In this document: positions 14,828 to 59,000 of the stretch, piece by piece
Numbering within the stretch: position 1 is the stretch's first letter
How the letters are laid out: the number at the start of each line of letters is the position of its first letter
Assembly (NCBI GenBank): GCA_008690995.1
Contig: VRMN01000001.1
Coordinates: 1,984,001 to 2,048,000, forward strand
DNA from: Porphyridium purpureum
Taxonomy: Eukaryota
DNA length: 64,000 nucleotides
Reading direction: 5' to 3'
Position numbers and translations under genes: made by a program
Notes under the pieces: generated by a model
What the model was told of the DNA's origin: nothing
The model's database searches: none
What the model saw: the letters and a program-made list of their open reading frames with translations, nothing else

Positions 14828-15041
14828 GACCTCTTCCGCGAGATTCAAGTGGAGATCTCTATGACCCGTGTTGCGCAGCAGCTGAAGTAGAAGAGGAGGA
14901 GGGAGATCGGTTCCGGAACGGCGCGAGCGCCCAACGTGTTGTGATTACTGCCTGGCAGGGAGGAGTTCTGTTTATGTAGAAAAGCGTCAAACATAGTTGA
15001 GCCGAAGCCGTTGGGGAGGTGAAGGTTTTCGTCGAAATCGA

Positions 15042-16142
15042 ATGCATGTAGGTGCAGAAAAATCAAAAGGCCCTCGGTCCAGGATGCTTGGCCCGTGTGG
15101 AAATGCGGTGAGGAAATTCGTGCTCGGCGATGCGCGCCTGCGGCCCATTCTGGGGTGCGCCGATGTTGTCGCATGCGCAACGCCGCTGTTCTCTCTAATC
15201 ATTGCCATTGGAGCCGGCGAGTATTTGGTGGTTTTGCGTTCGATTTGGTTCGGTCAGGGTGCAGACAGCTCCATGTCATCCGGAATCAAAAACCTCTCGA
15301 TTGCGGCATGGGCATGGATCGTGCTCTTTCAATTCCTGGTGTCCAGTATTTTTGCTTGCTTCGCTCTTTGCGTTCTGGTGGATCCGAGCGTCCGAGCGCT
15401 CGACTTGGACAACGGCTTAGAAGCAGCTCCGAGCCGGACGCCTCGCTTTTGCAGCAAGTGCTCCATACACAAGCCCCCGCGCGCGCACCACTGCAACAAG
15501 TGCGAGGCATGTGTTTTACGCATGGATCATCACTGTGCATACCTTTCCAACTGCGTGGGCCATGCCAACCTCAAGTTCTTTGTGTTGTTGCTGCTTTTTA
15601 GCGAGACTGCATGTGTCTGGAGCGTGGCCGTAAGCTGGCGTCCATTCATGCACGCCATTCGTGTGCACGACCAATTCATGGATAGCCCTTCGAAAAGCCT
15701 GCCGCCTGAGGTTTTCGCAGAGTTCAAGCACATGCCAATCCTGTTTGTATCGTTTACCGTCATCGCAGCCCTCGCCTTTGCGCTCTCTTTCTTTGTACCC
15801 TTCCATCTCTATTTGCTGTGCAAGGATCTAACGACCATTGACCTTGCCCAGGCGTACAGATCGAGAAACAGCCGCGGTGCCAGCAGTACGTCTAGCGTGG
15901 GGGGTGGAGGCAGTGTGCTGGAGAATTTGCGGCTCAACTGTGGAGATGCAGGCTGGTGGTGGTGGTGTGTGCCCGTCCGATACGGTATTCGAAGTCCTCT
16001 GGAATACGGAGTCCAAGACTACAATGTCGCTGTTGCACCCAGCGACGCGCGTGGATACACAGCCGTGACTCTCTCCGATGAGCAGAAACCCGAGAACAAC
16101 TTGCTTACTGTACCCCCTCTTGATGAAGTACAGTGCGTGTAA
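15042..16142 (+). CDS. DHHC-type protein S-palmitoyltransferase
   Basis: CSKCSIHKPPRAHHCNKCEACVLRMDHHCAYLSNCVGHANLKFF, TT motif and four hydrophobic segments; start 15042 or 15084. Confidence 0.95.
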   Translation: MHVGAEKSKGPRSRMLGPCGNAVRKFVLGDARLRPILGCADVVACATPLFSLIIAIGAGEYLVVLRSIWFGQGADSSMSSGIKNLSIAAWAWIVLFQFLVSSIFACFALCVLVDPSVRALDLDNGLEAAPSRTPRFCSKCSIHKPPRAHHCNKCEACVLRMDHHCAYLSNCVGHANLKFFVLLLLFSETACVWSVAVSWRPFMHAIRVHDQFMDSPSKSLPPEVFAEFKHMPILFVSFTVIAALAFALSFFVPFHLYLLCKDLTTIDLAQAYRSRNSRGASSTSSVGGGGSVLENLRLNCGDAGWWWWCVPVRYGIRSPLEYGVQDYNVAVAPSDARGYTAVTLSDEQKPENNLLTVPPLDEVQCV

Positions 16143-16375
16143 GCAAGACCCGTCCCGCGCGTTTCACGTCATATTTACCAGCATCACGTGAAGGGACCTC
16201 AAGTCGAATAGCCTGCGTGTCGTCTCTAGAATGGGATTGCCGCTCACGATAATGATGATGACCATGATGCCACGGTGCATGCGAGGATTGTGCCAACATT
16301 GATTTCGTTCGCAGCGATGTCGCACACTTGGCACCACGAGCCGTCGGTGGTCTTAGCTTCAGTCATTTCCTCGTC

Positions 16376-16382
16376 TATAAAA
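16376..16382 (+). promoter_or_regulatory. TATA box upstream of Hcp-like copy A
   Basis: TATAAAA 184 nt before ATG 16560; a matching element sits upstream of copy B. Confidence 0.5.
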
Positions 16383-16559
16383 GAGCGTGAAGTCGAATCT
16401 GGCGGATGGCTGCAACAGACATGTAATTCAAGGCGGGAAGAGGAACAGGGAAGAGGATAGTGGCTTGAACTGTTGACGTTAGGGAGTGGACATCGTGTCG
16501 GGTACTGTTTTCCTCGGATTTGCTTTCGGTCAAATATCTACCGGGCTTTGATTGCAGCC

Positions 16560-17060
16560 ATGATGCGCGCATCGCCTCTGCTGTTTACGGTTTTGGTCGG
16601 CGCTGCCTGCCTGTCTGTTGCGGACGCTGCCGTTTTTGCTTAGTACGAAGGCGTCAAAGGAGACGTGGCTGCGGAAGGCTTCGTCGGTTGGATTCCAGTG
16701 CAGCCGGCTTTAGTGACCTCTGTGCAGGGCCCATATCAGCTCACGTTCAAATCAAGTGCCGAGGCTATGCGCTTAGTACAGTACATGGTGCAGACGACGC
16801 CGCTGGAAGAGGTGGTGATCGAATTTTATCCGGACGAAGGAGGGTGCACAAGGCTGCCTTATCTTCGCTACAAGCTGAAGAGCGTTCCGGTGACGAGCTA
16901 CTTGTCGTCTGCGGGGACATCTGGATTGCCGACTGAAGAGGTTGCGTTCCTGTACGACGAGATCGAGGGCACCTTTTTGGAAGCCGACGCGGCGTGCTCT
17001 GAAGCGAAGCCGCAGGAGGCGTTCTTTGTCCGTTGTGATCGTTCCACTTCGACACGTTAG
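16560..17060 (+). pseudogene. Secreted Hcp (T6SS tube protein)-like gene, copy A, with in-frame TAG at 16641-16643
   Basis: MMRASPLLFTVLVGAACLSVADA-AVFA*YEGVKGD..GWIPV..PYLRYKLKSVPVTSY..PTEEVAFLY. It is collinear with copy B, and the TAG replaces the Lys (AAG) of AYIKFDG. Confidence 0.75.
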
Positions 17061-17679
17061 ATTATCTCAGTTTTGAAAAGGCGCCGCACCAATTGACCCT
17101 CGCCACTTGCCACTCGAACATAAAGCATTCCGCGTGGAGTTGTCAAAACAAGCCTGACCATTGACGAGCAGAAAGGTCCAGGTCCGTTTGTCACACAGAA
17201 ACACGCGAAGCCGCACTTGCCCGAGACCGGCACGTCCACGTGAATTGAAATGGCGTAAACTAACAGTACTTATCACTGTACTTTCGGAAAGGCAGACGTT
17301 TTGATTCTTGCTGACCGTGGCACACACGACACGCATTACACGAGATACGCAGCGTGAGATGCTGCAGCTCGCTTGCTGCCACGCTGCGAACATTACAGGG
17401 TCCGACACATCCGTGGCATCAATCACGACACGTACGCAAGCAAGCAAGCCACGAACTCGTCCACTCAAAGGTATTCGACTGCGCGATTCCCACGGTGGAT
17501 TGCGAAGGCTCGGTTCAAAAACCAGCCAGACCGTAGATAAAGAATTTGGGGCACGGCAAGCAGGCTACGGCGCCCTCTGGTGCCTTTTGCCTGGCATGCA
17601 AGCGTGCCAACACTGGCCCGCGCAGACGATGTCAGTTCCATTACACCTCGGGAACCAACAGCTGAGCCCACAAATCTCC

Positions 17680-17686
17680 TATAAAA
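17680..17686 (+). promoter_or_regulatory. TATA box upstream of Hcp-like copy B
   Basis: TATAAAA 170 nt before ATG 17850. Confidence 0.5.
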
Positions 17687-17849
17687 GGACATCGTGTCCC
17701 CAACGCTGCGCCTCGACTCGGTCTTTGATCGAAAGGCACGACATCAAAAGAAGAACAAGCCAGAGAGGATCGAGCAAAAGACGGAGGCATCGAAGAAAAT
17801 CGAGTAGTCCTGAGACGGCCAGGGCCTACGCGTCCACTCTTTGAAAATC

Positions 17850-18353
17850 ATGCGTGCATCGATCGTGGGAATTCTCGTGCTGCTTTGCGCGGTCTGCGTG
17901 TCGTGTGTGCACGCCGCGGCTTACATAAAGTTCGATGGAGTTGATGGAGAGTCTACGTCGAGCGACGACCCTCACAAAGAATGGATTCCAATCTTGTCTT
18001 CGTCCTTGACATCCGTGCAGGGACCTTTCCGGCTTTCGTTTCTTGCAAGTGCGAAAACCATGCGTCTGGTGCAGCATTTGGTGGCACGTGAACGTCTAAC
18101 GGAGGTGGTCATCGAGTTCGTCCAGGACGATGAGACCCCGCAGAACAAGAGCGATAACTGCGCGCTTCCGTATCTCAGGTACGAGCTCAAGGATGTACTG
18201 ATCAGCAGCTACTCTGTCTCTGGAGCAGCCTCGGGTGTGCCCACGGAGGAGGTCGCATTCAACTATGCTGTCGTTCAGGGAACATTCTATGAAGTAGATT
18301 CTGATTGCACATCTTCCAGGCCTGCCCAAGCGTTTTCCGCGATGAATCAGTGA
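17850..18353 (+). CDS. Secreted Hcp (type VI secretion tube protein)-like protein, copy B, intact
   Basis: Signal peptide MRASIVGILVLLCAVCVSCVHA, then Hcp hallmarks AYIKFDGVDGES..D.HKEWI.ILS and YLRYELKDVLISSYSVSG..PTEEVAFNY; AATAAA at 18485. Confidence 0.85.
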   Translation: MRASIVGILVLLCAVCVSCVHAAAYIKFDGVDGESTSSDDPHKEWIPILSSSLTSVQGPFRLSFLASAKTMRLVQHLVARERLTEVVIEFVQDDETPQNKSDNCALPYLRYELKDVLISSYSVSGAASGVPTEEVAFNYAVVQGTFYEVDSDCTSSRPAQAFSAMNQ

Positions 18354-18569
18354 AAACGGCCGAGCACTGTTCATTCATGGATGACACAGCCACAATATCT
18401 CACGGCATCCCTTGTGCACGCAAGCCCTAAGCGATGAGACTTCGTGAAAACCCCTGATCAAATTGAATTCCCCAATCTTCAGACAATAAAGTACGACATG
18501 TTCACTGCGCATAGAACGTTGTGGTCCTTCGACGGGCTGAAGTGCTTTGGAACAAAGAGCTTTGTGCCA

Positions 18570-20177
18570 ATGGAGCATGACTCGGCACACTCCGCACGCT
18601 CGTCGTCTGCTTCGACCTCTTCTGCGGTGGCGGCCGCGACAGTTCTAAAAGGGGAAACGTCGGCTGCAGCCGCGAGTGAGCGAGAGCTTGCGATGCAAGC
18701 CGATTTTGACGACGAAGGCGATAGCGTTGATGAAGCGCTCGTGCTGGATGAAAACTGGATTTACACACTGAGCCAACAGAGCCAGGAGGCGAAAAAAGGA
18801 GAAGAGGTCCAAAATCATGAACGAAATGAATCTGGGCAGAACGATGGTGATACAACGGACGGGGCCGCAAACACAGCCACGGTAAGGCGGACGTCGCGGA
18901 GATTTAGCGAGAAGTACACCACAGTCGCAGGGGCATCAGGCGCAAAGGGAGACCATTTGCCTCGTCAATCTTTGAGTAGCGAAGAAGCATTTGACGAGGA
19001 ATGCCTGACTGGCGAAGGGAAGCGGAAACGAGGACTTGCGTTCGAGGGTCATTTCGTGAACGGAAGGAGAAAGCATTTGTCGGCCTCCGCCTCGAAGCGA
19101 GGGAGACGGCGACCAGATACCAGCCGAGAGTTGACTTTGGAGCAGATTCGATTGGTCAACACAAAATTTGACGAGGCGTACCCAAAAAGCTCGTCAAATT
19201 CGGATCTTCTGAACAGGCTGGCGGACAGGGAGTACCAGGGAAATGGGACAGAAGAGCTGCTTAGAGTGCTAAAGAGTTGGTCAGATCGGCGCTGGGGTTT
19301 GCAGTTCAAATTTCAAAAGATGATACAGGAGTTGTACGTGACGGACGACAAAATTTTGCGGGATGGAGAGCTTCGCAAGCGGATTAAGGCTTTCAAATTC
19401 AACCATGGAGCTTTGCCAGTACCAGAAACTCTTTTGCCCTTTTACCCGGAGCATGAGTCGAAGCAGAATACTAGAAAAGCAAGGAAGAATAGAGGAGAGC
19501 CTCTCGCTGACGACGTGGTGGCATTCCGCAACGACAAGGATGACGAACGTCGCTGCTGGCGGCTTGGCGTGATTCGTCGTATTGAAATTGCAGGCTCCGT
19601 TTTGGTGCGGGACGTGTCGCCACTGTTTGCTTGTTCTGAGACAAGCTCCAAGGATGGGGAAGAGCTCGAATTTCGGGATTCTCAGGACGCAATGTCGCTC
19701 TGTGCCGCGACGCCTGCAGACCAGAACGACCAAAAGAAGCCGCCATCGCAGCGAAAGAGCCGTCGACTGTCTGGCTCTGGCCGCAGCAACAATCTGCTTG
19801 ATTTTGAAAGAGCGCTTCAGCGCGTGCGTGCAATGTCATCGAAAGAGGCCGCAGTCGAAAACGCTGGAACCACATTATGCACAGTCCCCGACGATGAGCA
19901 GCACTTGCGCGTTTTGTGTCGTGGCGGTCTGGAAACCTGGATCGGAATTTTACTGGCATGTCACAGACAGAAGCAAACCGCACTGGCGAAGAATGTCAGG
20001 CCACGAAAAAGCTTGGCGTTTGGCGACCGCGTGTGGGCGTTCTGCTCGAACCTACTTGAATCTGGTAGCTTTCATCCGGCAAAAATCGAGGACCCAACTC
20101 CAAGGAATTTGCCGTACGTGCGATTTGATGAGGACAACATGCTACGGCGCGTCCCTTTCAATGCGATATTCATGTGA
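18570..20177 (+). CDS. Hypothetical nuclear protein with an acidic/basic disordered N-terminus and a C-terminal Tudor-like domain
   Basis: Long ORF with NLS-like GKRKR. C-terminal LAFGDRVWAF..SFHPAKI..YVRFDED is Tudor-like. Start 18498 or 18570. Confidence 0.65.
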   Translation: MEHDSAHSARSSSASTSSAVAAATVLKGETSAAAASERELAMQADFDDEGDSVDEALVLDENWIYTLSQQSQEAKKGEEVQNHERNESGQNDGDTTDGAANTATVRRTSRRFSEKYTTVAGASGAKGDHLPRQSLSSEEAFDEECLTGEGKRKRGLAFEGHFVNGRRKHLSASASKRGRRRPDTSRELTLEQIRLVNTKFDEAYPKSSSNSDLLNRLADREYQGNGTEELLRVLKSWSDRRWGLQFKFQKMIQELYVTDDKILRDGELRKRIKAFKFNHGALPVPETLLPFYPEHESKQNTRKARKNRGEPLADDVVAFRNDKDDERRCWRLGVIRRIEIAGSVLVRDVSPLFACSETSSKDGEELEFRDSQDAMSLCAATPADQNDQKKPPSQRKSRRLSGSGRSNNLLDFERALQRVRAMSSKEAAVENAGTTLCTVPDDEQHLRVLCRGGLETWIGILLACHRQKQTALAKNVRPRKSLAFGDRVWAFCSNLLESGSFHPAKIEDPTPRNLPYVRFDEDNMLRRVPFNAIFM

Positions 20178-21735: not shown

Positions 21736-21911
21736 AATCGACTGTCTCACCTTTCCAGCGCCAATCGACACTTAGATGAACCGCCTCCCGCACCCTCACG
21801 CGACAGCCGATGAAGTGAACTTTCCCGCGATTTCAGTTCGCACCTTGTTTCTGAAGAATCGCCCGTTTTTATTCGTCATTTTGGCCTCGATCAATCTACG
21901 TGCCGTGCAGA

Positions 21912-24478
21912 ATCATGCAGCACCAAACGAAGTCAGGAAGCGGGAGATCTCGGCTTCAAGCATGGGCGCCAGCGCAAGCGCGGCGGCGACGGACAAATGA
22001 TGGTCGTCGATGTCACACACTTGGAATCCTTCAAACACAGCCAAGCTGAACTCCTTACGAATCTCGCTCGTCATAGAATCACTCGCGGAATCGTTCGACG
22101 TGCTCAGCATGGCGGACTCCGTCTCTGCAGGTCTCCCGCTCTTCGCTTTCACCTCGAGAGCAGGCAAAAAGTCTATCACCCCAACCTCAATCTCCGACTC
22201 TGTCAACAGCCGCAGAATCTCCAAGTGACGAAAGGACCACTCCGGGTCCATCGCAAACGTCTTCGGACAGTTTTGCAGCCCGCGGTTCTCGATGCAACGG
22301 ACCAACTTGTCTGGAAGGTGTGGGGGGTTCAGAATGAGCACCACACGATGCTTAAGCGATCGAAGCCACTGCACGGTCTCGCGCAGCCGGAAACGACATG
22401 CCATCAATTTGCCAGACTCTTCCGCAATCCACTGGTTGGGCCTCCTGCACCATCCGTCCATGTATTCAGTGACGAAAATGACGCTCGGCTCCATGGCCTC
22501 AAGCTTTTTCTTCACGGAATCGAAGAGGGCTTTGCATTCAGAAACCTTGCCACCGCTAACTGCTTCCCAGTCAAACATCAGGTCCGCACGGCACCCGCTC
22601 CATGCGTGCATCATAAACGACACGTTCCGGTTCACTCCAATGTTGTGAATCGCGGGACGCAAAGCTAGCATCATCGAGTCCCCGACAAACACCGCCTTGC
22701 TGCGAGCTCCGTGCTCGACAGCGCCGAGCTCGCAGTTCTGGCTCCTGTCTGCGTTAGTCTTGTTTCCCTTGAAGCAGTAAATGTCGTGCTTTGGAAAAAC
22801 CGGGAGCTCAATGGGGTACGGAAAGCAGGAGCGCGCCACCGCATCAGAAAGTGGGTCTCCAAATGCCAGCGCTTCCCCCTTGTCTTTACACATGCGTGTC
22901 AAGGAATAGATGTCGCCTGCCCCAGCGTCCTGCCATCCTTCCGCGGGATGGGTTGCATACGCTGCTGGTGCACCCCCAAATAGCGCCACGCTGTCGACTC
23001 GGATGCCGGCTTGCGCCCCCAGCACCATGCTCACAGTAGCCGCAATGCCGCCTGCCATAGCCAGCATTCGCAGTGCGCTCACAGACCCGCCCGACGACCC
23101 GCCCGACGACCCGCCCGACGACCCGCCCGACGACCCGCCAAGCCGCAGTCTCGCCTCCACCGCTTCGTACTGCACCGTGCCCAACATCATCGACCCCACG
23201 AACAGCAGCACTCCAACAACCACGCGCGGCACCGAGCATGCCCAGCTGCCATCTCCAGACACAAGGCAGTACCCGTCAAACGCCACGCGTAGCGGCCAGT
23301 GCACCAGGTACACCGAGTACGACACCTTGCCCACGAACCGCAGCAAACGGTGCGACAGCACCCACGTGCACAGCCAGCTGCGCGGAAACAGGATCAGCAC
23401 CGCACCGCCAACCACACACGGAAAGATCGCCACCGCGTTCACGCGTCCCACGGCTTCCTCGCTCACAAACGCACACGATCCCACAATGGCAAAGAGCCCG
23501 CAGAACGAGCACACATCGACCCACAGGCCTTCCCACCCACTCACAATACCGTACAGCTCCACCAGAACACCACCCACGCAGAACTCCCACGCCCGGAACG
23601 GAACCAGGAAGAACACCGCAGACCCGTCCGTCTTGGACAGCACCTGGCTGGCCACGAGCGACGCTACCCCAACCACGCTGATCCCCAAGCTCCGCCGCAA
23701 CGAAACCACACTCCAAGTGCTTTCTTCATCTCCGCCGCTCCAAACCACGCACCGCGCCGCAAACGTGAGCACGATCAGCACTGCCGGCCACACCACGTAG
23801 AACTGCTCCTCCACCGACAACGACCACGTGTGCAGAAGCGGCTTGGTACCCGCGCTCGCATCCCAGTACCCGGCCTCGCTGTAGAACACAAAGTTCGACA
23901 CCGACGCCAGCGAGCCCAGCGCAGACACGGCGTACGGCTGCACCCATGACCGTGGCATGCACGTCAGCGCATACACCGCCGTCCACGCCACCGTGAACAG
24001 TGAGCTCGGGTACAGACGCCAGAAGCGGCGGACGTAGAACTGGCCCAGCGCCGCGCACAGGTTGCTTGGCACGCCTGTGCGCAGCATGGACGAATACAGG
24101 TTGCGCGTGATCAGAAAGCCCGACAGAACAAAGAACAGGTCCACGCCCAGGAAGCCACCGGGCATGTACAGGTCAAAGTGAAACGCGAGCACGCCCACCA
24201 GCGCAAGCGCGCGCAGGCCGTCCAGATGCTCGAGGTATATGTGGGTATGTGCGCTCTTCACAGGCGAGTGCAGCTCGTCCTCCGCACGGCCGGGCTGCGT
24301 GCTACTCCAGTCCTTGGCGTTCTTGTGGTCTGTCTGCGCACGTGCCGGGCCCTCCAATCCAGGGATCGAGACGCACACCGCGCCTGGCGCACCAGCATGC
24401 TCGAGAGGAGCACGCTGGTGCAGCTCGTGCTGTCTTGCAGTCTGAGAAAGCTCACTCGCAGGCGATTGCTCAAGGTCT
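21912..24478. repeat. Segmental direct duplication, unit 1 (about 2.57 kb; partner 26570-29135)
   Basis: Line-by-line near identity at an offset of 4658/4657 nt. Confidence 0.95.
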
Positions 24479-25435: not shown

Positions 25436-26569
25436 CGTGCGTCGGTAGGCGAGCTTGCGCGAGCAAAAGGCGTGGCGGAAGGCGCAGCGGCGATCTTTCG
25501 GCGTCGCCGTTCCGCTGCCGCCCTGGCCTCGGCCGCGCTCGAGCCCGCGCGGTTCATGGCGCTCTGTCGCCATTGAGCTGCAGCGCCGTCTGTTTCATTC
25601 GGGATGGGGACAGGCATATACGTGTGCTCCGGTGATCCCCAACATTACACATCAGCCGGCCAAAGGTCGCAGCCGCCTTGAGGATTTTACATGTGCGCGC
25701 GAGTGCAAGCCTCAGCTACACGACAGTGCATGTCCTTGCTCGAGCGCCGGCTGCCTTGGGTGCCGCGTCGTACTCGAGCTTCGTGCGTCCGGGACAGGCG
25801 GACTTTGGGATGACTTTCTCGCACGGGAGCTTCTCGTACAGCGTGGAGGAAGCGACAATGGTGCTTGCGTCCTGCAGTTTTGGCCACGAAGCAACACACG
25901 TGACGGGACATCCCGGCGGCACTGCAGGCCTTCCCCTCCCGACCACAAACGAGGCAAAATGTTTGAACGAACTGCGAGGATCGGTCACTGCCTCAGAGGC
26001 TCAGGCCCGTGGCAGAGGATGAGAAGAGAACTTGCTTGATGCAGGCAATCGACAGGGATCCTCGTCGCAAGATGTTCAAGACGAAGGGCTGGAGTGCTTA
26101 TCGGCCGCCGCAGGCAGTCTGGCACGCTCTTACAATAATCGCTTAGCGTGGCCCACCAAGAGTCGGGCACGAGTGAGTTTCCGGCTCGGCCTTTGCTTGC
26201 GTAAATTATGGCTCGTAGCTGACGGCCTTCATCGAACTCACCAGAGTGGCACGTGAACAGTAGGGCAGGCTTCCTCAGGGTAGCACGCAAACTAGGAGCT
26301 ATATATCGCGCGGCTACGAGCCGCACGTGGACACCCTTGTAAACTGCGCATGTCAAAGGCTAGAACAGGTAATGAGGTTCCCTTTCTGTCTCATCCATGC
26401 ATTTGTCGTCGCGTCGAATCGTCCTAAAGTTATGTTAGCTACATGATCACGACCTTTTGCGCAATCTCACGCGCTGGTGCGCTGGGGACAAGATGTTAGT
26501 GATATCCTTTCTCTACACGTGCTGTCATGGCAGGAAGTGTGGCCCCGATCATTCAATATAGCATGAAGA

Positions 26570-29135
26570 ATCATGCCTTACCAAACAAAGTCAGAAGGCG
26601 GGAGATCTCGGCTTCAAGCATGGGCGCCAGCGCCAGCGTAGCGGCCCGGGATAAATGATGCTCATCTATATCATGCACTTGAAATCTTTCAAACACAGCC
26701 AAGCTGAACTCCTTACGAATCTCGCTCGTTTTCGAATCGCTCGCGGAATCGTTCGACGTGCTCAGCATGGCGGACTCCGTCTCCGCAGGTCTCCCGCTCT
26801 TCGCTTTCACCTCGAGAGCAGGCAAAAAGTCTATCACCCCAACCTCAATCTCCGACTCTGTCAACAGCCGCAGAATCTCCAAGTGACGAAAGGACCACTC
26901 CGGGTCCATCGCAAACGTCTTCGGACAGTTTTGCAGCCCGCGGTTCTCGATGCAACGGACCAAATTGTCTGGAAGGTGTGGGGGGTTCAGACTGAGCACT
27001 ACACGATGCTTAAGCGATCGAAGCCACTGCACGGTCTCGCGCAGCCGGAAACGACATGCCATCAATTTGCCAGACTCTTCCGCAATCCACTGGTTGGGCC
27101 TCCTGCACCATCCGTCAAAGTATTCAGTGACGAAAATGACGCTCGGCTCCATGGCCTCAAGCTTTGTCTTCACGGAATCGAAGCGGCCTTTGCATTCAGA
27201 AACCTTGCCACCGCTAACTGCTTCCCAGTCATACATCAGGTCCGCACGGCACCCGCTCCATGCATGCATCATAAACGACACGTTCCGGTTCACTCCAATG
27301 TTGTGAATCGCGGGACGCAAAGCTAGCATCATCGAGTCCCCGACAAACACCGCCTTGCTGCGAGCTCCGTGCTCGACGGCGCCGAGCTCGCAGTTCTGGC
27401 TCCTGTCTGCGTCGGTCTTGTTTCCCTTGAAGCAGTAAATGTCGTGCTTTGGAAAAACCGGGAGCTCAATGGGGTACGGAAGGCAAGAGCGCGCCACCGC
27501 ATCTGAAAGTGGGTCTCCAAATGCCAGCGCTTCCCCCTTGTCTTTACACATGCGCGTCAAGGAATAGATGTCGCCTGCCCCAGCGTCCTGCCATCCTTCC
27601 GCGGGGTGGGTTGCATACGCTGCTGGTGCACCCCCAAAGAGCACCACGCTGTCGACTCGGATGCCGGCTCGCGCCCCCAGCACCATGCTCACAGTAGCCG
27701 CAATGCCGCCTGCCATAGCCAGCATTCGCAGTGCGCTCACAGACCCGCCCGACGACCCGCCCGACGACCCGCCCGACGACCCGCCCGACGACCCGCCAAG
27801 CCGCAGTCTCGCCTCCACCGCTTCGTACTGCACCGTGCCCAACATCATCGACCCCACGAACAGCAGCACTCCAACAACCACGCGCGGCACCGAGCATGCC
27901 CAGCTGCCACCTCCAGACACAAGGCAGTACCCGTCAAACGCCACGCGCAGCGGCCAGTGCACCAGGTACACCGAGTACGACACCTTGCCCACGAACCGCA
28001 GCAAACGGTGCGACAGCACCCACGTGCACAGCCAGCTGCGCGGAAACAGGATCAGCACCGCACCGCCAACCACACACGGAAAGATCGCCACCGCGTTCAC
28101 GCGTCCCACGGCTTCCTCGCTCACAAACGCACACGATCCCACAATGGCAAAGAGCCCGCAGAACGAGCACACATCGACCCACAGGCCTTCCCACCCACTC
28201 ACAATACCGTACAGCTCCACCAGAACACCTCCCACGCAGAACTCCCACGCCCGGAACGGAACCAAAAAGAACACCGCAGACCCGTCCGTCTTGGACAGCA
28301 CCTGGCTAGCCACGAGCGACGCTACCCCAACCACGCTGATCCCCAAGCTCCGCCGCAACGAAACCACACTCCAAGTGCTTTCTTCATCTCCGCCGCTCCA
28401 AACCACGCACCGCGCCGCAAACGTGAGCACGATCAGCACTGCCGGCCACACCACGTAGAACTGCTCCTCCACCGACAACGACCACGTGTGCAGAAGCGGC
28501 TTGGTACCCGCGCTCGCATCCCAGTACCCGGCCTCGCTGTAGAACACAAGTTCGACACCGACGCCAGCGAGCCCAGCGCAGACACGGCGTACGGCTGCAC
28601 CCATGACCGTGGCATGCACGTCAGCGCATACACCGCCGTCCACGCCACCGTGAACAGTGAGCTCGGGTACAGACGCCAGAAGCGGCGGACGTAGAACTGG
28701 CCCAGCGCCGCGCACAGGTTGCTTGGCACGCCTGTGCGCAGCATGGACGAGTACAGGTTGCGCGTGATCAGAAAGCCCGACAGAACAAAGAACAGGTCCA
28801 CGCCCAGGAAGCCACCGGGCATGTACAGGTCAAAGTGAAACGCGAGCACGCCCACCAGCGCAAGCGCGCGCAGGCCGTCCAGATGCTCGAGGTATGTGTG
28901 GGCGCGTGCGCTCTTCACAGACGAGTACAGCTCGTCCTCCGCACGGCCGGGCTGCGTGCTACTCCAGTCTTTGGCGTTCTCGTGGTCTGTCTGCGCACGT
29001 GCCGGGCCCTCCAATCCAGGGATCGAGACGTACGCCGCGCCTGGCGCACCAGCGTGCTCGAGAGGAGCACGCTGGTGCAGCTCGTGCTGTCTTGCAGTCT
29101 GAGAAACCTCACTCGCAGGCGATTGCTCAAGGTCT
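26570..29135. repeat. Segmental direct duplication, unit 2
   Basis: Near-identical to 21912-24478. Confidence 0.95.
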
Positions 29136-39443: not shown

Positions 39444-41487
39444 ATGGAAGGCGCGCACATCATAGAAGTGCAAGGCCTGGGTGACGCCGTCCAGCCCAGT
39501 GGCACGGACCTCGGCGCGCCAGGCAAAGTCGCAAAGAGCGGAAGTAGTGAAAGCGACCAGTCGCAGTGGTTTGGCACACAAGCGCCGCAGAAAGCTGGCA
39601 TCGACTTTGATCCATACTTCACGGAACATGATGATATCGAAGCGCAGCGCCACGACGAGACATCGTTCACAGAGCGTCGCCGAGTTGATTTGCACTGGAA
39701 GGACTTGCGCTTCGACGTCGGAATCAAGCGCAAGCTCGGCGGCAAGGTGGACGACTCGAACCGCAAGACAATTCTCAGGGGCATTTCAGGCGAGGTGCGA
39801 GCGGGCACCATGCTGGCCATCATGGGCAGTTCGGGCGCTGGCAAGACAACGCTCCTCAATTTGCTGGCGGGTCGGCTGACGAGCAGCAAGGACTATGAAG
39901 TCTCAGGCGAGATCTTGGTGAACGGCGCCAAGCGCAACCCATCCACATTTAAGCGGCAGTCGGCGTACGTCGAGCAGGAAGATAAGATCTTTGCCGAAGT
40001 GACCGTGTACGAGCAGCTCAAGTTTGCCGCCGACTTGCGTCTTCCCAAAAAGATGCCTTCGGACGTCAAGGAGCAGCGCGTGCTGAGCACGATTCAGGAA
40101 CTCGGCTTGATGAAGGTCAAGGACTCGTATGTGGGCGGCGAGCAGGTGCGCGGCGTGTCTGGCGGCGAGAAGAAGCGAGTGAACGTGGGAACCGAGCTTG
40201 TGACAGACCCGTCGCTGCTGTTCCTTGACGAGCCGACGTCCGGGCTTGACAGCTTCAACGCGCTGAACGTGATGTACACGCTGCGCAAACTGGCGTCGAA
40301 CGGGCGCACGATTGTGACCACGATTCACCAGCCGCGCTCGAACATCTTTTCGATGTTTGACTACTTTTGCCTGCTAGCGGAGGGGCAGGTGATGTTCTTC
40401 GGGCCGGCGCAGGACGCGGTCGAGTACTTTGCGAGGCTGCACTTCCGGTGCCCGGAACGGTTCAACCCGGCGGACTATTTCGTGGACCTGGTTTCGGTGG
40501 ACCCGCGTTATCCCGCAGGCCGAGGGCAAGTCGCGCGCGCGCATCGAATACTTTGCGGAGGAGTTTGAAGAGACCAAGAAAACCATTGATGCGGACTTCA
40601 GCAAAGTAGAGTCGACAGTATCTTCTGACACGGCGAAGAGCAAGTTTGCGTCAAGCTGGACTTACGAATTTGGCAAGGTGCTGAAGAGACAGTGGCAATT
40701 GACAACGCGGGAGCGCGTCGCTAATACTGCGCGCATTGGGCAGACGGTCTTTTTCGCCATCTTGTTGGGTCTCATTTGGCTGAACAATGGCCGGGTCGAT
40801 TGGAGCGATCCTGATGTTGCCAGTTCACAAGCATTTAACATTGGGGGCGTAATCTTCTTCACTGTCGTGAATCAAGCGTTTTCGGGTATCTTCAACGTAC
40901 TGTTCGTCTATCCACTCGAGCGAAACGTCGTGCTCAAGGAGCGTGCGTCCGGCACGTACCGCGTTTCCACCTACACCTTTGCTCGCATGGTAGCCGACCT
41001 ACCCCGGTCCTTGTTCCAGGATATCTTTTTCGTGTCGGTCTTGTACTGGATGGTCGGACTTCGCGCTGACGTAGGCGCCTTTTTCCTGATGTGTTATATT
41101 GTGCTGATGGTCGCGATGATCACAGAGGGCTTCACGTTCGCGCTCATGACTGTGTTTCCGGATCCGCAGGCTGCTGCGGCTCTGGCGCCGGTTTACGTCA
41201 TCCTCTCTATGTTGTTCGGCGGGTTCTTGATTGACGTGGAAAGCATTCCGGCCGCAGTGGCGTGGATACGATGGGTGTCATTTGTGAACTATGCATTTGG
41301 CGCGGCTATGCAGAACCAATTTGGATGTGGCCCAGAATGCGGTGAGCAAATCCTCTCGAGTCCGTTCCAGGTTGAAATCAGTCTTACGGCTGGTTGCCTT
41401 GCGCTGCTTGGATTTAATGTTTTCTTCCGTGTCCTGTGGTACGTCATCTTGCGCGTGAACGGTCCGAAGCTCGCCAAGGCGTTGTAG
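39444..41487 (+). pseudogene. ABCG (White-type) half transporter copy A, with a +1 frameshift at about 40509-40511 (real or assembly error)
   Basis: Walker A GSSGAGKTT, signature VSGGEKKR and LDEPTSGLD in ORF 39387-40568; TMD in ORF 40429-41487. CGTTATCCCG here versus CGTAACCCG in the paralog. Confidence 0.8.
39771..40604. repeat. Inverted repeat arm 1 (about 830 bp, ABCG NBD; partner 42590-43422)
   Basis: Near-identical reverse complement; the translated NBDs are almost residue-for-residue identical. Confidence 0.93.
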
Positions 41488-41709
41488 TATTGTGAAAGAA
41501 ATTATTCATTTGACAGGTAAACGCCTTGTGGACACGTGATCGTACCGATATTATCGTGCGAAACAAGAATGTTTAGACGATGACACACCGTGCCTAAGGT
41601 CGCTAACGTCCCACACATAGATGAAAGAACAGTCGCAGAGATAATCAACTAGACAAGCAGGACAGTTTTACCAGAATTTATCGCTCCCACGACACGTCGT
41701 AATTGTCAC

Positions 41710-43761
41710 TTACAGCTCAGACGCGAGCTTGGGACCCGTGAGTCTCAGAATGGTGTACCACAAGACACGGAAAAACACGTAAAAGCCGAGCAACGCAAGA
41801 CAACCTGTGGCAAGCGAAATCTCGACGGTAAATGGGTCGGTGAGCAGAGCCTCCCCACATTCTGGGCCACATCCAAACTGGTTGATAATCAGGGTTTGAA
41901 ATGCATAGTTGATAAAGCTCACCCAGCGGATCCAACTGATCCAATCGTATATGGCGTCCGGATTGATGAGAAATCCACCGAAGAGCATAGACAAAATAAT
42001 GAATACAGGCACAATGGCACTGGCCGCCTGCGGATCGGGCAAGACAGTACTGATGCAGAATGTGAGGCCCTCGGCAATGTTTTGCGTCATGAACACCACG
42101 TACAGCATAACGAAAAAGGGTCCAGCTTCCGAGCGGAAACCAACCATGAAGTAAATGATCACAACGAATAGCAGAACTTGTAAAAGTGTGCGCGGAAAGT
42201 CAGCCGTCATTCGAGCCAACACATATGCAGACACGCGATACGTGCCAGACGCACGCTCTTTCAGAACAACACTCCGCTCAAGAGGATAAACAAACAGCAC
42301 GTTAAAAACGCCTGCAAACGCCTGGTTGATAGAAATGAAGAATACAATGCCACCAATATTGAAAGCTTCCTGACTCGCAACCACTGGATTGCCCCAGTCG
42401 ATTCGACCATTGTTCAGCCAAATCAGGCCCAGGAGAACAGAGAAAAATATTGTCTGGCCGAAGCGCGCGGTGTTCGCAATTTTCTCTCGCGTATTTAACT
42501 TCCACACCCGCCCTGTGAGTTTCGAGTACTCATGGAACCAATTCGATGCGTATTTGCTCTGATGCTCTTGCTGCACCGTTGAATCGACCTTGCTGAACTC
42601 CGCATCAATGGTTTTCTTGGTCTCTTCAAACTCCTCCGCAAAGTATTCGATGCGCGCGCGCGACTTGCCCTCGGCCTGCGGGTTACGCGGGTCCACCGAA
42701 ACCAGGTCCACGAAATAGTCCGCCGGGTTGAACCGTTCCGGGCACCGGAAGTGCAGCCTCGCAAAGTACTCGACCGCGTCCTGCGCCGGCCCGAAGAACA
42801 TCACCTGCCCCTCCGCTAGCAGGCAAAAGTAGTCAAACATCGAAAAGATGTTCGAGCGCGGCTGGTGAATCGTGGTCACAATCGTGCGCCCGTTCGACGC
42901 CAGTTTGCGCAGCGTGTACATCACGTTCAGCGCGTTGAAGCTGTCAAGCCCGGACGTCGGCTCGTCAAGGAACAGCAGCGACGGGTCTGTCACAAGCTCG
43001 GTTCCCACGTTCACTCGCTTCTTCTCGCCGCCAGACACGCCGCGCACCTGCTCGCCGCCCACATACGAGTCCTTGACCTTCATCAAGCCGAGTTCCTGAA
43101 TCGTGCTCAGCACGCGCTGCTCCTTGACGTCCGAAGGCATCTTTTTGGGCAGTCGCAAGTCGGCGGCAAACTTGAGCTGCTCGTACACGGTCACTTCGGC
43201 AAAGATCTTATCTTCCTGCTCGACGTACGCCGACTGCCGCTTAAATGTGGATGGGTTGCGCTTGGCGCCGTTCACCAAAATCTCGCCTGAGACTTCATAG
43301 TCCTTGCTGCTCGTCAGCCTACCGGCAAGCATGTTGAGGAGCGTTGTCTTGCCAGCGCCCGAACTGCCCATGATGGCCAGCATGGTGCCCGCTCGCACCT
43401 CGCCTGAAATGCCCCTGAGAATGGCCTTTCGATTTGAGTCGTCTGTTTTCCCGAGTTTTTTGTGCTTCACGCCTACATCAAACGACAGGTGCCGCCAGCG
43501 CAAGTCCACTCGGCGGCGTTCCGTGAACGACGTCTGCCCGTGCTTCTCGCCGTCCTCTCCCAAGTCCAGCTCTGCAGTTTCCGTGAAGAACGGGTCAAAT
43601 TCCAGCCCTTTCGTGCCTTGCATATCCGTCGGAGCCTCGACATCCTCGAGCATCACATCCGAAGCGCGCTCACCTCCATTCCACGCCATGGCTTTCGCAT
43701 CCGCGCCGGCATTCGCCTGTGCTTCCGCGGCCGCCACACTCGCATACGCCGCTGCGTCCAT
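41710..43761 (-). CDS. ABCG (White-type) half transporter copy B, intact
   Basis: NBD-TMD order; GSSGAGKTT, VSGGEKKR, TIHQP, NPADY and ER.V..KERASG.Y. Confidence 0.96.
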   Translation of the reverse strand: MDAAAYASVAAAEAQANAGADAKAMAWNGGERASDVMLEDVEAPTDMQGTKGLEFDPFFTETAELDLGEDGEKHGQTSFTERRRVDLRWRHLSFDVGVKHKKLGKTDDSNRKAILRGISGEVRAGTMLAIMGSSGAGKTTLLNMLAGRLTSSKDYEVSGEILVNGAKRNPSTFKRQSAYVEQEDKIFAEVTVYEQLKFAADLRLPKKMPSDVKEQRVLSTIQELGLMKVKDSYVGGEQVRGVSGGEKKRVNVGTELVTDPSLLFLDEPTSGLDSFNALNVMYTLRKLASNGRTIVTTIHQPRSNIFSMFDYFCLLAEGQVMFFGPAQDAVEYFARLHFRCPERFNPADYFVDLVSVDPRNPQAEGKSRARIEYFAEEFEETKKTIDAEFSKVDSTVQQEHQSKYASNWFHEYSKLTGRVWKLNTREKIANTARFGQTIFFSVLLGLIWLNNGRIDWGNPVVASQEAFNIGGIVFFISINQAFAGVFNVLFVYPLERSVVLKERASGTYRVSAYVLARMTADFPRTLLQVLLFVVIIYFMVGFRSEAGPFFVMLYVVFMTQNIAEGLTFCISTVLPDPQAASAIVPVFIILSMLFGGFLINPDAIYDWISWIRWVSFINYAFQTLIINQFGCGPECGEALLTDPFTVEISLATGCLALLGFYVFFRVLWYTILRLTGPKLASEL
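42590..43422. repeat. Inverted repeat arm 2
   Basis: Reverse complement of 39771-40604. Confidence 0.93.
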
Positions 43762-52893: not shown

Positions 52894-54984
52894 CTAAAGC
52901 TTAGGGTCCTCGTAAAGGACAATGTTCACCAATCGACTAAGCAGGTACATGAGGACCGCAGAAAACGCAGAATACGCCTCCACATCATTTTGAGCGGGTT
53001 TCAGAAGTCCAATACTCGTCCCGGGGGGGATATCTAAAGTAGACGCAAGGTCAACCTTGTTGCGAAGCATTTCAGACATCATCGCCAGTTCAGTACCTTG
53101 AAATATTTCAGATGTGCCGGAGCCCGCTGAGACCTCGCTCAAGCGAATACGTGCTAGGGGCGTTCGTCCATTCACAATTTCTGTGATCTGAGCCTCCGCT
53201 GCGCGCGCAGGTGGGAACTCGCGCCAGTCTATCACGATGATGTTTGCAGCAGGCGATGCAAGATTCTCAATCACGCTCTCTACGTGGCCCCGGTGTAGCG
53301 CCTCGAGATACCACAGCTCGACAGCAGATTCCGAGTCGTCCCCGCGGAGACGCATGCGATCGTAACAGGTGGCAGGGTCCGCATGAAGGTACAGAATCCA
53401 GTCAGGCGCATGCGTCTCGCGCTCGGCAAGGGAGCAGTATACACTGTACTCGTCGGGCGAAATGCGCCCCAGCATGCGATTGGTGTTCGCAAAGACTCGA
53501 TTTCCGAACAAAGACCGATCAATGATTGAGACGGCGGAAGCCGTACGCTTCGAGTTCTGTGATGTATCTCGGGCCTCGCGAAACGCGTCTGCACTCCTTG
53601 CAAGACAGTTTTGAAGCATGTATATTTGAAACGCAAAGCCATACCGCGACGCGTCCTTGTAGAATTGATCGAGAAACAACTTGTTTGGCCTCTCCTGATG
53701 TACAATGCATCGAACTTTGTTTGGCAGAAAAAAGTCATCGCGCAGGCTCTGAGCCCATGTTGATTTGCCAACGCCGATGTTGCCTTCAATTGCGAACACA
53801 GATCCCGTCCAACTCTGCCACGGACCTGGTGTTTCTACGTCGGGTTCCGCCGGCGCGATATCGAGGCGCCCTGACTCTGTAATCCTCGCTTTCTCATTTT
53901 CAGCCCCAGTCAAAGACGATGATGGCTTCTTTGGTGAGACCAGTAAGAAACCATCCGAGATGGGTGCAATTAGAGAATAAACACGCGGATCGGTTGCCGC
54001 AACCTCGTTTGTCTCCCGGATGCCAACAGTCTCCGGGTCTCGTACCGACGCATCCGCAACACGGCCAGACCAGAGCGCGTCGTCAAATACGATAACCCCG
54101 TGAGGAGCTACTAGCTTCAAGCACAGCTCGTAGTAAGTCGGATAAGCTTCCTTGTTCGCATCGATAAAGATCAAGTCAAAACGCTGATTCTCACTGTTCT
54201 CCTCCACAAGTTGCCCCAGAACGGCTACGCCATCACCGCACCGCAAAGTAATCTTTGCGCTCAAGCCAGGATCTTCCCGCACTGCAGCCTGCGCGAAAGA
54301 CAACGCACGAGCATCGCAGTCGATGCTCAGCAGTGAGCCGTCGCTAGGCAATGCCGATGCCATGCTGATGGTGCTGTAGCCTGTGAAACATCCTACTTCG
54401 AGGCATCGCGCTGCTTTCGATGTTCTCACGAGCATGGCAAGGAATTGTCCTTGTTCGGGAGACACCATCATCATGCTCTGGTCGCTCGGGAAATTGAGTA
54501 CGGTAGTCGCCCGAATTCTACGAAGTACATCAGACTCTGCTTGCTTGCAGCGTTCTTTCAGATATCGCGCAAGTTCGGTGCTCTTGCTAACCGAGGATTC
54601 GAACCCCTCTCCGCCGTACAACCCTGCTAGATCCTGGCCCAGGGAGCTCTGCGTATCTCCGCTGATCACCGAATGCAGGTCGGCAAAATCCGACGGCAGC
54701 AAGCCACCGAACACCGTGCCCGGATCCGTGCTCAGAATGGGAACATCAGAAGCTGGACGCACGCTTCCGTTCTCCCGAATGCTTTCTTCGTCGCGCGCTT
54801 CACCGTCTGCATTGGACGCGCACGGCGCTGGCGTGCTCCAACGCCATTGTTTCACCGTTCGATAACTGCTGGCGGCTGGCTTGGTCGAGCGCCCGGTGCT
54901 GCATCTCTGTCGTGCCGCGCCATGTGGACCAGTGCGGAGCTCTATCCCACCGTGCACTGCGACAAAGGCGGCTCCCTTCCCCAT
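52894..54984 (-). CDS. Fusion protein: transit peptide, class I O-methyltransferase (CCoAOMT/COMT family 3) and deoxynucleoside kinase
   Basis: OMT: MMVSPEQGQFL, LEVGCFTGYS, FDLIFIDANK, FDDALWSG, PISDG. dNK: AIEGNIGVGKST, FAFQIYML, IIDRS, YLHADP..CYDRM..RG..E. Single uninterrupted frame. Confidence 0.88.
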   Translation of the reverse strand: MGKGAAFVAVHGGIELRTGPHGAARQRCSTGRSTKPAASSYRTVKQWRWSTPAPCASNADGEARDEESIRENGSVRPASDVPILSTDPGTVFGGLLPSDFADLHSVISGDTQSSLGQDLAGLYGGEGFESSVSKSTELARYLKERCKQAESDVLRRIRATTVLNFPSDQSMMMVSPEQGQFLAMLVRTSKAARCLEVGCFTGYSTISMASALPSDGSLLSIDCDARALSFAQAAVREDPGLSAKITLRCGDGVAVLGQLVEENSENQRFDLIFIDANKEAYPTYYELCLKLVAPHGVIVFDDALWSGRVADASVRDPETVGIRETNEVAATDPRVYSLIAPISDGFLLVSPKKPSSSLTGAENEKARITESGRLDIAPAEPDVETPGPWQSWTGSVFAIEGNIGVGKSTWAQSLRDDFFLPNKVRCIVHQERPNKLFLDQFYKDASRYGFAFQIYMLQNCLARSADAFREARDTSQNSKRTASAVSIIDRSLFGNRVFANTNRMLGRISPDEYSVYCSLAERETHAPDWILYLHADPATCYDRMRLRGDDSESAVELWYLEALHRGHVESVIENLASPAANIIVIDWREFPPARAAEAQITEIVNGRTPLARIRLSEVSAGSGTSEIFQGTELAMMSEMLRNKVDLASTLDIPPGTSIGLLKPAQNDVEAYSAFSAVLMYLLSRLVNIVLYEDPKL

Positions 54985-55690: not shown

Positions 55691-56082
55691 TGTTGAACAG
55701 GCGTGCCCGAAAGAACCGTGGGGATGGTGTTACCGAAGGTGAGCGCCATGATGATTTGCAAGTGAAGACTGCTATTCTCCTGTATCACCTTACTTCCTTT
55801 ACTGAAGCCCTACGCATGCAATCGTGGGGCGAGGCGCTCTTTATATAATGCGGCGGTGTGCCCTGCAGGGCAGGTGAAGGCAACACGCGCTGCATGTGCG
55901 GACGTGCTTGTCCCCGAGAGTAATTGCACGGCAGCCCGGACGGGTTGCGACGCCCTGCCAGCACGGCAAGGGGTCGTCACGCCCTTTCCGCCTTTTGCGC
56001 CATCCGCAGGACACGTCGCGGTTCGCGACCCCACGTGCTCCGGCTCCTGCATAAGGTGGCTGTGTACAGTGATATCTTCACA
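55691..56082 (-). repeat. 3' LTR
   Basis: TGTTGAAC...CTTCACA; no mismatch found versus 60431-60822. Confidence 0.97.
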
Positions 56083-59000
56083 CGCCCCCTCGCTGGCAGC
56101 AGCCACCTGCACAACCTGGTCTCGATGTCGGAGGAACTTGTCAGCGCTTAAAGCCTTGGTAAACATATCCGCAGTGTTCGCCTTTGTATCAATCCTCACC
56201 AGTAACGCCAGCCCTGCTAACTCGGTAACTTCGTGGATCCACGCGACTTCGACTCCATGTGTTTTTGACATATGCAGTAGCTTATCTGACCACCCTCTCC
56301 TCACGCATGCAATCGCAGCCTCATTATCGCAGCGCAAGATTGCGCGCATTGGACCTCTTTTGTCATTTGGTGGCATCAGATCTTCTTGCATCAACCAGGC
56401 AGGCATTAAACCAATCTTCAGTGAACTAGCCATTGCCGCAAGCTCAGCTTCAGTTGTGCTTGTGCTGCATGATCGCTGCCGGCTAGAGTGCCACTCCAAC
56501 AAATACACAAGCGCCCCCGATCGGGCAAAAACCACAAAGCCTGTAGTCGAGCGTCGAGTACTCAGACATCCCGCGAAATCTGCGTCACAAAATACCTCCA
56601 GTCGAAATGAGAGTAGACCGTTTTTGTCTGCCTCCGGTGGGCGCGGATACACAACGCTAGCGTTTTTGTGCCACAACAGGTATCGCAGTACTCGGTCGAG
56701 CGCCGACGAAGCGCGGTCGTCCCAAGCGTCGACGTACCGCGCCACCCACGCAGCGGCGTGGGCAAGATCAGGCCTGGCAGCTCTTGCAAGCCACATGAGC
56801 TGGCCGACAGTAGTGCGAATCCATGGCTCACACGCAACGGTTCCTGATGAGCGCTGGGTCTCACAGCTTGCCTGGACATCACTGAGCGGTGTTTTCGCTT
56901 TGCGACACACCCAGCTCCCATTTTCGAATCGATACCCAAGTTTGGGAAGCGCGTTGTTCAGTATTAATGTCGAATAGCCGTTACTGTGCAATGACCATGC
57001 GTCCGGGCCTGCGTCTACTGTCATACCCAGGAAGGTAACTTTTCCACCCTTCGACATTCTCTCAATTGCTTTGGATATTTTGAAGATGGCGCAGATCTCC
57101 AGAATGGCCTTGTCGACTGCCTCCGGGTCGCCCGCAAGCAGACCGTCGTCCACGTAAAGAGCCATGAGGACCTTCGCGCATCCGAAAGCTTTAAAGTACA
57201 TGTTCATATCTCCGGATGCCTGAGCCCACCCTTGCTTGATAATCTTCTGCCTTGCATCCGCCCCAAAGTCTGCGCCTGACCGCGGCAACCCATATAGCGC
57301 TTTAATCAGTGGGACGACGGGTCGAGCGAAGCGAATTCCCCACGACTCAGGGCGTGCTTCCATTGGCAATTCCAGGAACGTTTTCGGCCCCTTCAGTTCC
57401 GTCGAAAGATACGCAGAGTCTACGTCGAACGTTGCCAAATCTCCTGCGATCCTTCCATGCGCAATGGCGATTCTGGCTGATCGCAACCCGATGGGCTTTT
57501 CGTACTGGAATGTATTGTCTCGCACGAGATGTCCATTGCAGTCGTAGATGAGGCATCCTTGTGCTACAAGCCGAGCTTTCAGAACTCGCCGATTAGCGTC
57601 CTGCTCCACGAATTTCTCAGATACGATTAGTTTGCCTCGTACAAATTGCGCACCGATATGTTTTCGAGCCTCGTCATATTCGATGACGGAGTCTGGGTCG
57701 AATACGGACATGCTGATCATGGCGCCCAATTCCTTCTTGATTGCCTCCTTTGCCTCCATAGTTTCAAGCTCTTCCTTCTGCGTGATTAATCGTGTCACAT
57801 AGGCGCACGGAGTTGGCTCCGTAGCCATCACGACAGATAAGTGCGCATCTTCCGGGCTGTTCCAAAAACGCGCGGGTGGTCGCCGGAGACGTTCTGAACG
57901 CCTCGGCGCGGGTGGCGGCGAGTCCTGCTGCACTGGTTCGCCTCGTTCATGCTGATATCGTGGCGTCATCGTGTGCGTCAAACCTTGCTCTTCGCTCGCA
58001 CTGCGTCCGCGTTGTGCTCCAGCGTCTTCTTCGCTCTCATTCACGTACAGCATTTCGCGAAAGTTCTGTTCGGTGAGGCCAAGATCACGTGCTCGCTGGA
58101 GGATCTCCAGAGGTGACCTCCGACGCAGATCATCGTGTTCCGCGGCTCTCTCGAAGTTCCACCCATTGGAGATGAGCGAATTGGCCATCGCCTCATCCTC
58201 ATCAAGCGTCCAGGCATGCTCTTCCGTCGTGACTTGTCGGCGTTCGCTGGCCAGACCGGTATTGTCAGCTGTGTCTCCGCCGGATTCGTGCAGTAATCTT
58301 GGTACATCTGGTCCGTTGTTGTGTACAAGTCCGGTCGCTGTTTCCGTCTCGGCGCGCGTCGCCTCCAGCTCATGTGCCTGGTCTTCCTCTATTATTCTCA
58401 CATTCGTTGCCTCGACAACTGTTTGTGTTCCATTCAGCAAGATTCTGTACACTTTGTGTCTTTCACCGTAGCCGACCAGGATACCTGCGCGAGCTCGGGC
58501 GTCGAGCTTGTCTGGGCCCCTTTCGTAAACATATGCGCGAGAACCGAGTACACGTAAGTGGTCCAAATCGCCCGATTTTCCACAGGCCACGATAGGAACT
58601 GTTCCTCGTGTATTGGGGCTTCGATTGAGAACGTAACAGACTGCCGGGGCCAATTCCGGCCACAAATGTTTGTTCAGTCCCTTCGCCAGTACGACCGCAC
58701 GGACTCGCTCGAGTAGTGTTCGATTGAAGCGTTCCGCGCTTCCGTTCATCTGCGGCACGAACGGAGGTCCAGATTCAAGGCGTATTCCTGACGCATCGGC
58801 CCACGCTCGAGTGGGTGCGTTAACGTACTCAGTACCTTTGTCCGTGCGAAGCGCCCGAACGCTATGCCCGCACATGGCTTCCATTGCGCGCACCATGCTT
58901 TTCAGAGCGGTGAGCGTTTCACTTTTGTGTCGTATCGGGAAGCAACCCGCCAACCCAGTTGCGTCGTCCAGCAGCGTAACCACGTATCGCTCACCTCGGA

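Follow-up and report, generated by a model that had tools for sequence, protein, structure and literature searches.

Two adjacent genes on the + strand of a 64,000-nucleotide stretch of Porphyridium purpureum DNA (hereafter the window), placed at 16376..18490 by the original prediction, are genuine, expressed and horizontally acquired Hcp genes, of which one (copy B) is intact and the other (copy A) is probably newly dead. Hcp serves as a marker of the T6SS and is viewed as a tube subunit that has no signal peptide. The reading that we favor here, at a probability of about one half, is that a single transfer from an Hcp-exporting prokaryote founded the pair, that copy B would act as a secreted single ring that does not stack, and that copy A would be a young pseudogene that is still expressed.

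Copy B (17850..18353, + strand) is an intact ORF of 167 amino acids, recognized as an Hcp-fold protein from its reading frame, from Pfam and from its predicted fold, and it contains the Hcp motifs that had been quoted from it in the original prediction. The family assignment is borne out by profile search, since T6SS_HCP (Pfam PF05638) matches copy B at E 7.6e-15 and the part of copy A that follows its stop at 4.1e-9, with scores (55.8 and 37.2 bits) that both exceed the curated cut-off of 23.5 bits. The best sequence matches of copy B among solved structures are Hcps, and its AlphaFold2 model, built on a 37-sequence Hcp alignment (pLDDT 84.7), displays the predicted Hcp fold of a beta-barrel with a single helix. 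Foldseek relates this model to Hcp crystal structures at E 4.3e-11, and comparison with an Hcp crystal structure yields a Z of 18.8 and an rmsd of 2.1 over 134 residues, whereas phage and eCIS tube proteins remain well below, at a Z of about 10. The signal-peptide-like N-termini proposed for both copies are found in both sequences and, for copy B, by a hydrophobicity heuristic; the N-terminal hydrophobic stretch measures 22-23 residues in each copy by such a heuristic, and the predicted signal of copy B covers residues ~1-22. Copy B also has one N-glycosylation sequon (Asn99), two cysteines (Cys104 and Cys153) and no ER-retention motif in its sequence. The expectation of two ORFs of ~165 amino acids holds for copy B and fails for copy A (16560..17060, + strand), which comprises a predicted signal peptide (~codons 1-23) and an Hcp domain but reads as 27 codons, a TAG and then 138 codons. 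This in-frame TAG (codon 28, 16641..16643, + strand) lies opposite a Lys codon of copy B, ~4 codons past the predicted signal cleavage site.

Both copies are nuclear genes of P. purpureum. Their upstream neighbor is a eukaryotic DHHC palmitoyltransferase gene (15042..16142, + strand), as originally proposed and as confirmed by Pfam, whose transcript is polyadenylated separately, at 16397 (4 reads of one run). The downstream flank is a weakly transcribed ORF of 559 amino acids (18498..20177, + strand) that has no Pfam match at E<=1, and its former label of Tudor-like is not retained. Since the first ATG of this ORF is located inside the 3' end of the copy B mRNA (18498-18511), its true start is probably further 3'. 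The eukaryotic character of the surrounding DNA is equally clear from PSF2, CNOT11, ORC2, a v-SNARE, Myb and other neighbors, and GC3 is 0.64 and 0.61 for the Hcp copies vs 0.57-0.74 in six neighboring genes. A profile scan of 40 ORFs of the window found no T6SS family, with neither ClpV nor VgrG, sheath or baseplate genes among them, in agreement with what had been stated for vgrG, sheath and baseplate, and a six-frame profile search of the window returned only two Hcp stretches, copies A and B.

Each copy is preceded by a TATA-box-like CTATAAAAG (16375..16383 for copy A and 17679..17687 for copy B, + strand). This 9-mer, common to both copies, was assigned by its count, with 2 matches for 0.12 expected and at least 2 matches in 0 of 100 shuffles. 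The TATAAAA reported before each copy starts at 16376 and 17680, 184 and 170 nt 5' of the respective ATGs, and these two are the only ones in the window. RNA 5' ends cluster at 16438-16442 for copy A and at 17749-17750 for copy B, and stranded reads define a separate sense mRNA for each gene, unspliced, free of joints and polyadenylated: 16438..17148 for copy A (5' ends 16438/16442, poly(A) at 17148 in runs X22 and X24) and 17749..18511 for copy B (poly(A) at 18511 in the same two runs, with an AATAAA at 18485-18490), both on the + strand. Reads were mapped from three raw RNA runs of one study and from one contig set of another study; all four sets exhibit the same fixed differences from the window (~20 in 5.6 kb) and therefore belong to another strain. 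Mean depth in the three runs was 150, 68 and 207 over copy A, 78, 50 and 318 over copy B, 55, 36 and 69 over the DHHC gene, and 5-8 over the downstream ORF, the mRNA of copy A being 0.7-1.9 fold as abundant as that of copy B. Between the two Hcp genes, at 17269, five reads of run X23 continue into ~99 unrelated letters.

Every relative that was detected is a prokaryotic or metagenomic protein, a situation that contamination or a chimeric assembly would produce. Such an origin is nevertheless very unlikely, because the neighbors are eukaryotic, because one independent contig runs across DHHC, copy A and copy B with 8 substitutions and no gaps, which also largely answers the earlier concern about a chimeric join, and because the two genes have separate poly(A) mRNAs, TATA boxes, and a GC3 and SNP density that are host-like. 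In 20 of the 24 runs listed (8 studies), half or more of the words of 15000-19500 are also present, 8 of these 20 runs being a possible source of the assembly. The two copies are integrated, transcribed with host signals and ameliorated, and they bear the mark of purifying selection.

In the public annotation, copy A is concealed by a false fusion to the DHHC gene. The model KAA8498371.1 ('putative protein S-acyltransferase 16') consists of the DHHC ORF and the copy A sequence after the stop, which requires an intron at 16026-16643 with the copy A TAG as splice acceptor. No joints were found in the reads, and the DHHC mRNA ends at 16397 while that of copy A starts at 16438-16442; this fusion is probably an annotation artefact.

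Elsewhere in the window, a 2.6-kb tandem duplication (21882-24478 and 26540-29135, 97% identical, one gap) contains an AT3-SGNH acyltransferase gene, the second copy of which is split into two ORFs near 28436-28604. Since this family is typical of bacteria, the gene is possibly another transfer. Two ABCG-type transporter genes, 80% identical and inverted relative to each other, occupy 39444-43761, with the + strand copy in two ORFs that are separated by an intron or a lesion, and a single ORF of 696 amino acids at 52894-54984 fuses an O-methyltransferase to a deoxynucleoside kinase domain. A Copia-type LTR retrotransposon (55691-60822) encodes an ORF of 1559 amino acids and has identical LTRs of 392 bp, indicating a very recent insertion.

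The closest proteins to the algal copies are prokaryotic Hcps in which a signal-like N-terminus is joined to the same motif, the signal peptide being placed directly before an AAYIKFDG-type motif in the alga as in this prokaryotic class. Single-domain Hcps with a signal-like N-terminus account for 118 of the 184 proteins retrieved, B included (hydrophobicity heuristic), in a pool that is biased by a query that included the signal peptide. With the mature domain alone as query, the top 11 matches of B and the top 7 of A belong to the signal-peptide class, and the median mature-domain scores of the signal and signal-less classes are equal (49.6 vs 48.9). Class profiles score 108 (signal) vs 76 bits (signal-less) on B and 63 vs 37 on A, the signal-class profile being broader and so favoring divergent queries. 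At the level of genomes, 74 Hcp loci were collected, 60 with a Met-Ala-Ala-like start and no signal and 14 with an N-terminal extension. VgrG lies beside hcp in 9 of the 10 signal-less loci scanned (10 of 60; 60 of 80 picked ORFs), the tenth having DUF2169 genes. T6SS core genes were found within 6 kb of none of 12 of the 14 extended loci, for which 110 of 114 picked ORFs were scanned, the ORF picker sometimes taking the wrong strand and one locus having a broken extension. A six-frame search detected the sheath gene VipB in 1 of 10 signal-class genomes, nine of them MAGs that may be incomplete; in Luteolibacter marinus, 6 Hcp matches were found but no VipB.

This signal-peptide class is found in Verrucomicrobiota, Omnitrophota, Chloroflexota, Planctomycetota and Nitrosopumilus, and one of its metagenomic loci sits among predicted surface proteins. 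A second Hcp-domain ORF directly follows the first in 10 of the 12 signal-class loci. In ten tandem loci, from bacteria and Nitrosopumilus, this second gene encodes a signal-peptide Hcp with a long C-terminal extension, and no T6SS genes were found near them; the tandem pair looks like a conserved two-gene exported module. In one retrieved protein and in an Atlas cluster (57 members, 98% PEP-CTERM), Hcp ends in a fused PEP-CTERM sorting tail, which points to an exported Hcp that is anchored at the surface. Eleven proteins and others similar to them, of 1000-2200 amino acids, display about six Hcp domains per chain, several with planctomycete-style N-termini, and six Hcp repeats in one chain would amount to a covalent hexameric ring.

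The original prediction was that the alga itself had routed a captured tube protein to its secretory pathway. This part is probably wrong, since the best matches are prokaryotic signal-peptide Hcps without T6SS neighbors: judging from these comparisons, the signal peptide was probably inherited from the prokaryotic donor rather than being algal, and the donor was likely a prokaryote in which export of a stand-alone Hcp was already in place. Capture of a T6SS tube Hcp followed by addition of a signal peptide in the alga is rather unlikely. It could draw on the ease with which signal peptides, as low-complexity sequences, are gained, on signal-less T6SS Hcps of Planctomycetota that share the N-terminal motif (best score 60.4 vs 67.8 bits), and on its compatibility with both trees described below; yet an abundant, pre-adapted class with the same junction between signal and mature part exists, both the mature-only scores and the class profiles favor this class, and shortened or variable loops occur only in the signal class among the aligned rows.

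Copies A and B are sisters with a support of 98 in a quick tree of 64 rows. A second tree of 54 rows left out copy A and nine long or doubtful rows, its careful search being unfinished, and in neither tree is the position of B supported or do rows with and without a signal separate. Since A and B are sisters with a common deletion and a common cysteine pair, the algal tandem appears to be a duplication separate from the prokaryotic pair. The horizontal acquisition and the duplication of the original prediction, the latter within the algal line, are supported, as is expression, by Pfam, by the tree (98), by pS/pN and by the poly(A) mRNAs.

The genes look lineage-limited from the searches performed. 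In protein searches for other eukaryotic Hcps, the only eukaryotic matches were P. purpureum's own models (39 matches in all among 120 candidates with copy B at near length, 1 among 16 with copy A, and 4 among 1303 with copy B for longer proteins). A search of 50% cluster representatives, where B's own cluster would mask any orthologue above 50% identity, gave 575 matches, most of them unnamed proteins; among the 150 listed, 20 name look-ups pointed to no further eukaryote. A metagenome scan recovered 3 loci, two of which were examined and look prokaryotic, and the Atlas clusters with Hcp are prokaryotic. Viral contigs contributed 2 loci at 30% identity, and no viral vector appears to be indicated. 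In the literature searched, we found no description of an algal or eukaryotic Hcp, although gene-transfer or protein lists in the genome paper and in the supplement of PMC10866757 could name these genes, and none of a signal-peptide Hcp; Hcp is mentioned neither in passages of PMC10866757 nor, by a term search, in PMC3777023.

Copy A was a coding gene through most of its history, as pN is lower than pS between the copies, including in the mature part 5' of Met70. Aligned end to end, 73 of 158 residues are identical between A and B, with a saturated pS of 0.77 vs a pN of 0.34; the mature part 5' of Met70 gives a pS of 0.70 and a pN of 0.37, and the 3' part 0.88 and 0.32. For copy A, this selection is historical. 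The TAG is one substitution away from a Lys codon. As 4.2% of point changes lead to a stop, a single stop in 166 codons without any frameshift bounds the neutral decay of copy A at ~0.14 substitutions per site. The branch of copy A is also longer than that of copy B in the quick tree of 64 rows. No variant or joint is listed at 16641-16643 in the RNA reads (5% threshold; 50-169 reads at the adjacent site 16617), which argues against both an assembly error and RNA editing at the TAG; two strains or haplotypes ~0.4% apart (the window and the mRNA of the second strain) have this stop in common. Folding copy A from its sequence alone, with the stop read through, gave no useful model (pLDDT 39.8). 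The simplest reading of the sequence is that copy A is likely a recent pseudogene that is still expressed. Several other accounts of the stop were discarded: an intron ending at the TAG, as the reads are without joints; RNA editing, as no variant reaches 5%; reassignment of TAG, which is a normal stop that terminates 8 of the 30 long ORFs in the window; and long-standing use of Met70 as the start of the product under selection, as the mature part upstream is constrained too.

The abundance of the copy A mRNA, equal to that of copy B, counts against a pseudogene, as a dead gene need not show it. Copy A might instead still supply a minor subunit to mixed A/B rings, its protein being made by UAG read-through or by a new start at Met70; this we regard as unlikely, although the mRNA level speaks for it. 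Lysine is one of the residues that are inserted at UAG. The stop is maintained in both haplotypes, the frame is otherwise intact and constrained on either side of Met70, a structure of an Hcp heterohexamer exists (9vne), and mRNA stability is tied to translation in P. purpureum according to the abstract of PMC10866757. These points are met by the normal use of TAG as a stop in this window, by the single substitution from a Lys codon that suffices to explain it, by the long branch of copy A, and by its retention of 16 of 49 conserved Hcp columns vs 27 in copy B; re-initiation at Met70 would in addition drop the signal and the first strands. The UAG-UAC context is also not known to be a read-through motif.

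A feature that sets the algal copies apart is the loss of a loop. The spacing between Trp45 and the helix is 27 in both copies, compared with 43-45 in 89 of 89 signal-less T6SS-type rows and with 28-53 (median 42) in 129 signal-class rows, so that the algal value is shorter than all of them. About 17 residues of the ring-stacking loop L2,3 are missing in both copies, the missing stretch being assigned to this loop by its position between strands 2 and 3. In passages of PMC4650826, loop L2,3 mutants of a T6SS Hcp are described as keeping their hexamers and losing stacking. The algal copies also share two cysteines at matching places, both of which are found in only 2 of 221 prokaryotic rows. 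With the stacking loop absent and this cysteine pair present in both copies, a secreted single ring seems likelier than a nanotube, an idea of the original prediction that is weakened by the deletion. The loss would still be compatible with stacking, since compact Hcps (120-127 residues in structures) serve working T6SS in Bacteroidota. Stacking of secreted B into capsular nanotubes or filaments is improbable, even though its model keeps the Hcp/tail-tube fold, the added cysteines could cross-link subunits, and engineered inter-ring disulfides yield Hcp tubes (PMC4650826). Copy B may, on the other hand, no longer oligomerise like Hcp, because 22 of the 49 conserved columns are lost. A complex prediction for three copies of mature B, which used no alignment, was uninformative (score 0.22, mark 0.32).

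In the reading that we favor, one horizontal transfer from a prokaryote with an exported stand-alone Hcp would have delivered a gene whose Sec signal was re-used for entry into the ER. Copy B would be cleaved after about residue 22, would form a Cys104-Cys153 disulfide and may be glycosylated at Asn99 and, having no ER-retention motif, would leave the cell. Six copies would form the hexameric ring typical of Hcp, with a cavity in the middle, rather than a tube, and this ring would operate as a binding or scaffolding protein at the cell surface or within the polysaccharide capsule; its job would probably be that of the exported Hcps of prokaryotes. After the transfer the gene would have been duplicated, copy A diverging faster and recently gaining its stop.

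The alternative in which B, as a decoy or sink, traps T6SS effectors or surface structures of attacking bacteria is weakened by the way in which effectors travel: they are injected, and a ring outside the cell would not encounter them. Most relatives moreover come from T6SS-free genomes, and we consider this alternative doubtful. It would be in line with the role of Hcp as a chaperone of effectors (introduction of PMC4650826), with the Hcp-effector structures 9qpe and 9vnd, and with the ~six-fold variation of copy B depth vs ~two-fold for DHHC, which in three unreplicated runs is compatible with regulation. Equally doubtful is a more elaborate scheme, in which a disulfide-locked and possibly glycosylated secreted Hcp ring, with a second subunit throttled by read-through, would bind or neutralize bacterial products in its cavity within the capsule, making it the first eukaryote-encoded Hcp and one derived from an undescribed, T6SS-independent exported class of prokaryotes.

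The algal copies resemble the T6SS inner tube protein Hcp/TssD (PF05638; PDB 1Y12, 3EAA, 8YUN, 7FCF) in sequence family and predicted fold. They differ from it in being nuclear genes with signal peptides, TATA boxes and poly(A), without T6SS genes in the window, and in their deleted loop L2,3 and added cysteine pair. With the stand-alone signal-peptide Hcps of Verrucomicrobiota, Omnitrophota, Chloroflexota and Nitrosopumilus they share the signal and motif, a tandem arrangement and the lack of T6SS neighbors, but identity is at most ~41% (tree alignment) and the algal pair are sisters, indicating a duplication and no co-transferred pair. Dae genes are reportedly T6SS Tae amidase effectors that were domesticated in ticks and other eukaryotes, where they are enzymes with a known target. 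Like them, the algal Hcp is a T6SS-related gene that moved to a eukaryote and is secreted by the ER route (predicted for Hcp); unlike them, it is a structural ring protein without a catalytic site and probably arrived with its signal.

An expressed and long-retained eukaryotic copy suggests that the Hcp fold has a second, machine-independent job that is useful enough to cross domains. As P. purpureum is transformable and tagged proteins are well secreted by it (passages of PMC10866757), it offers a direct route to the job of a prokaryotic Hcp class whose members are mostly uncultured. Besides, a naturally non-stacking, secretable Hcp ring would be of interest to protein engineers. Less expected is the probable source of the genes, an undescribed class of prokaryotic Hcp that was already exported when the alga borrowed from it.
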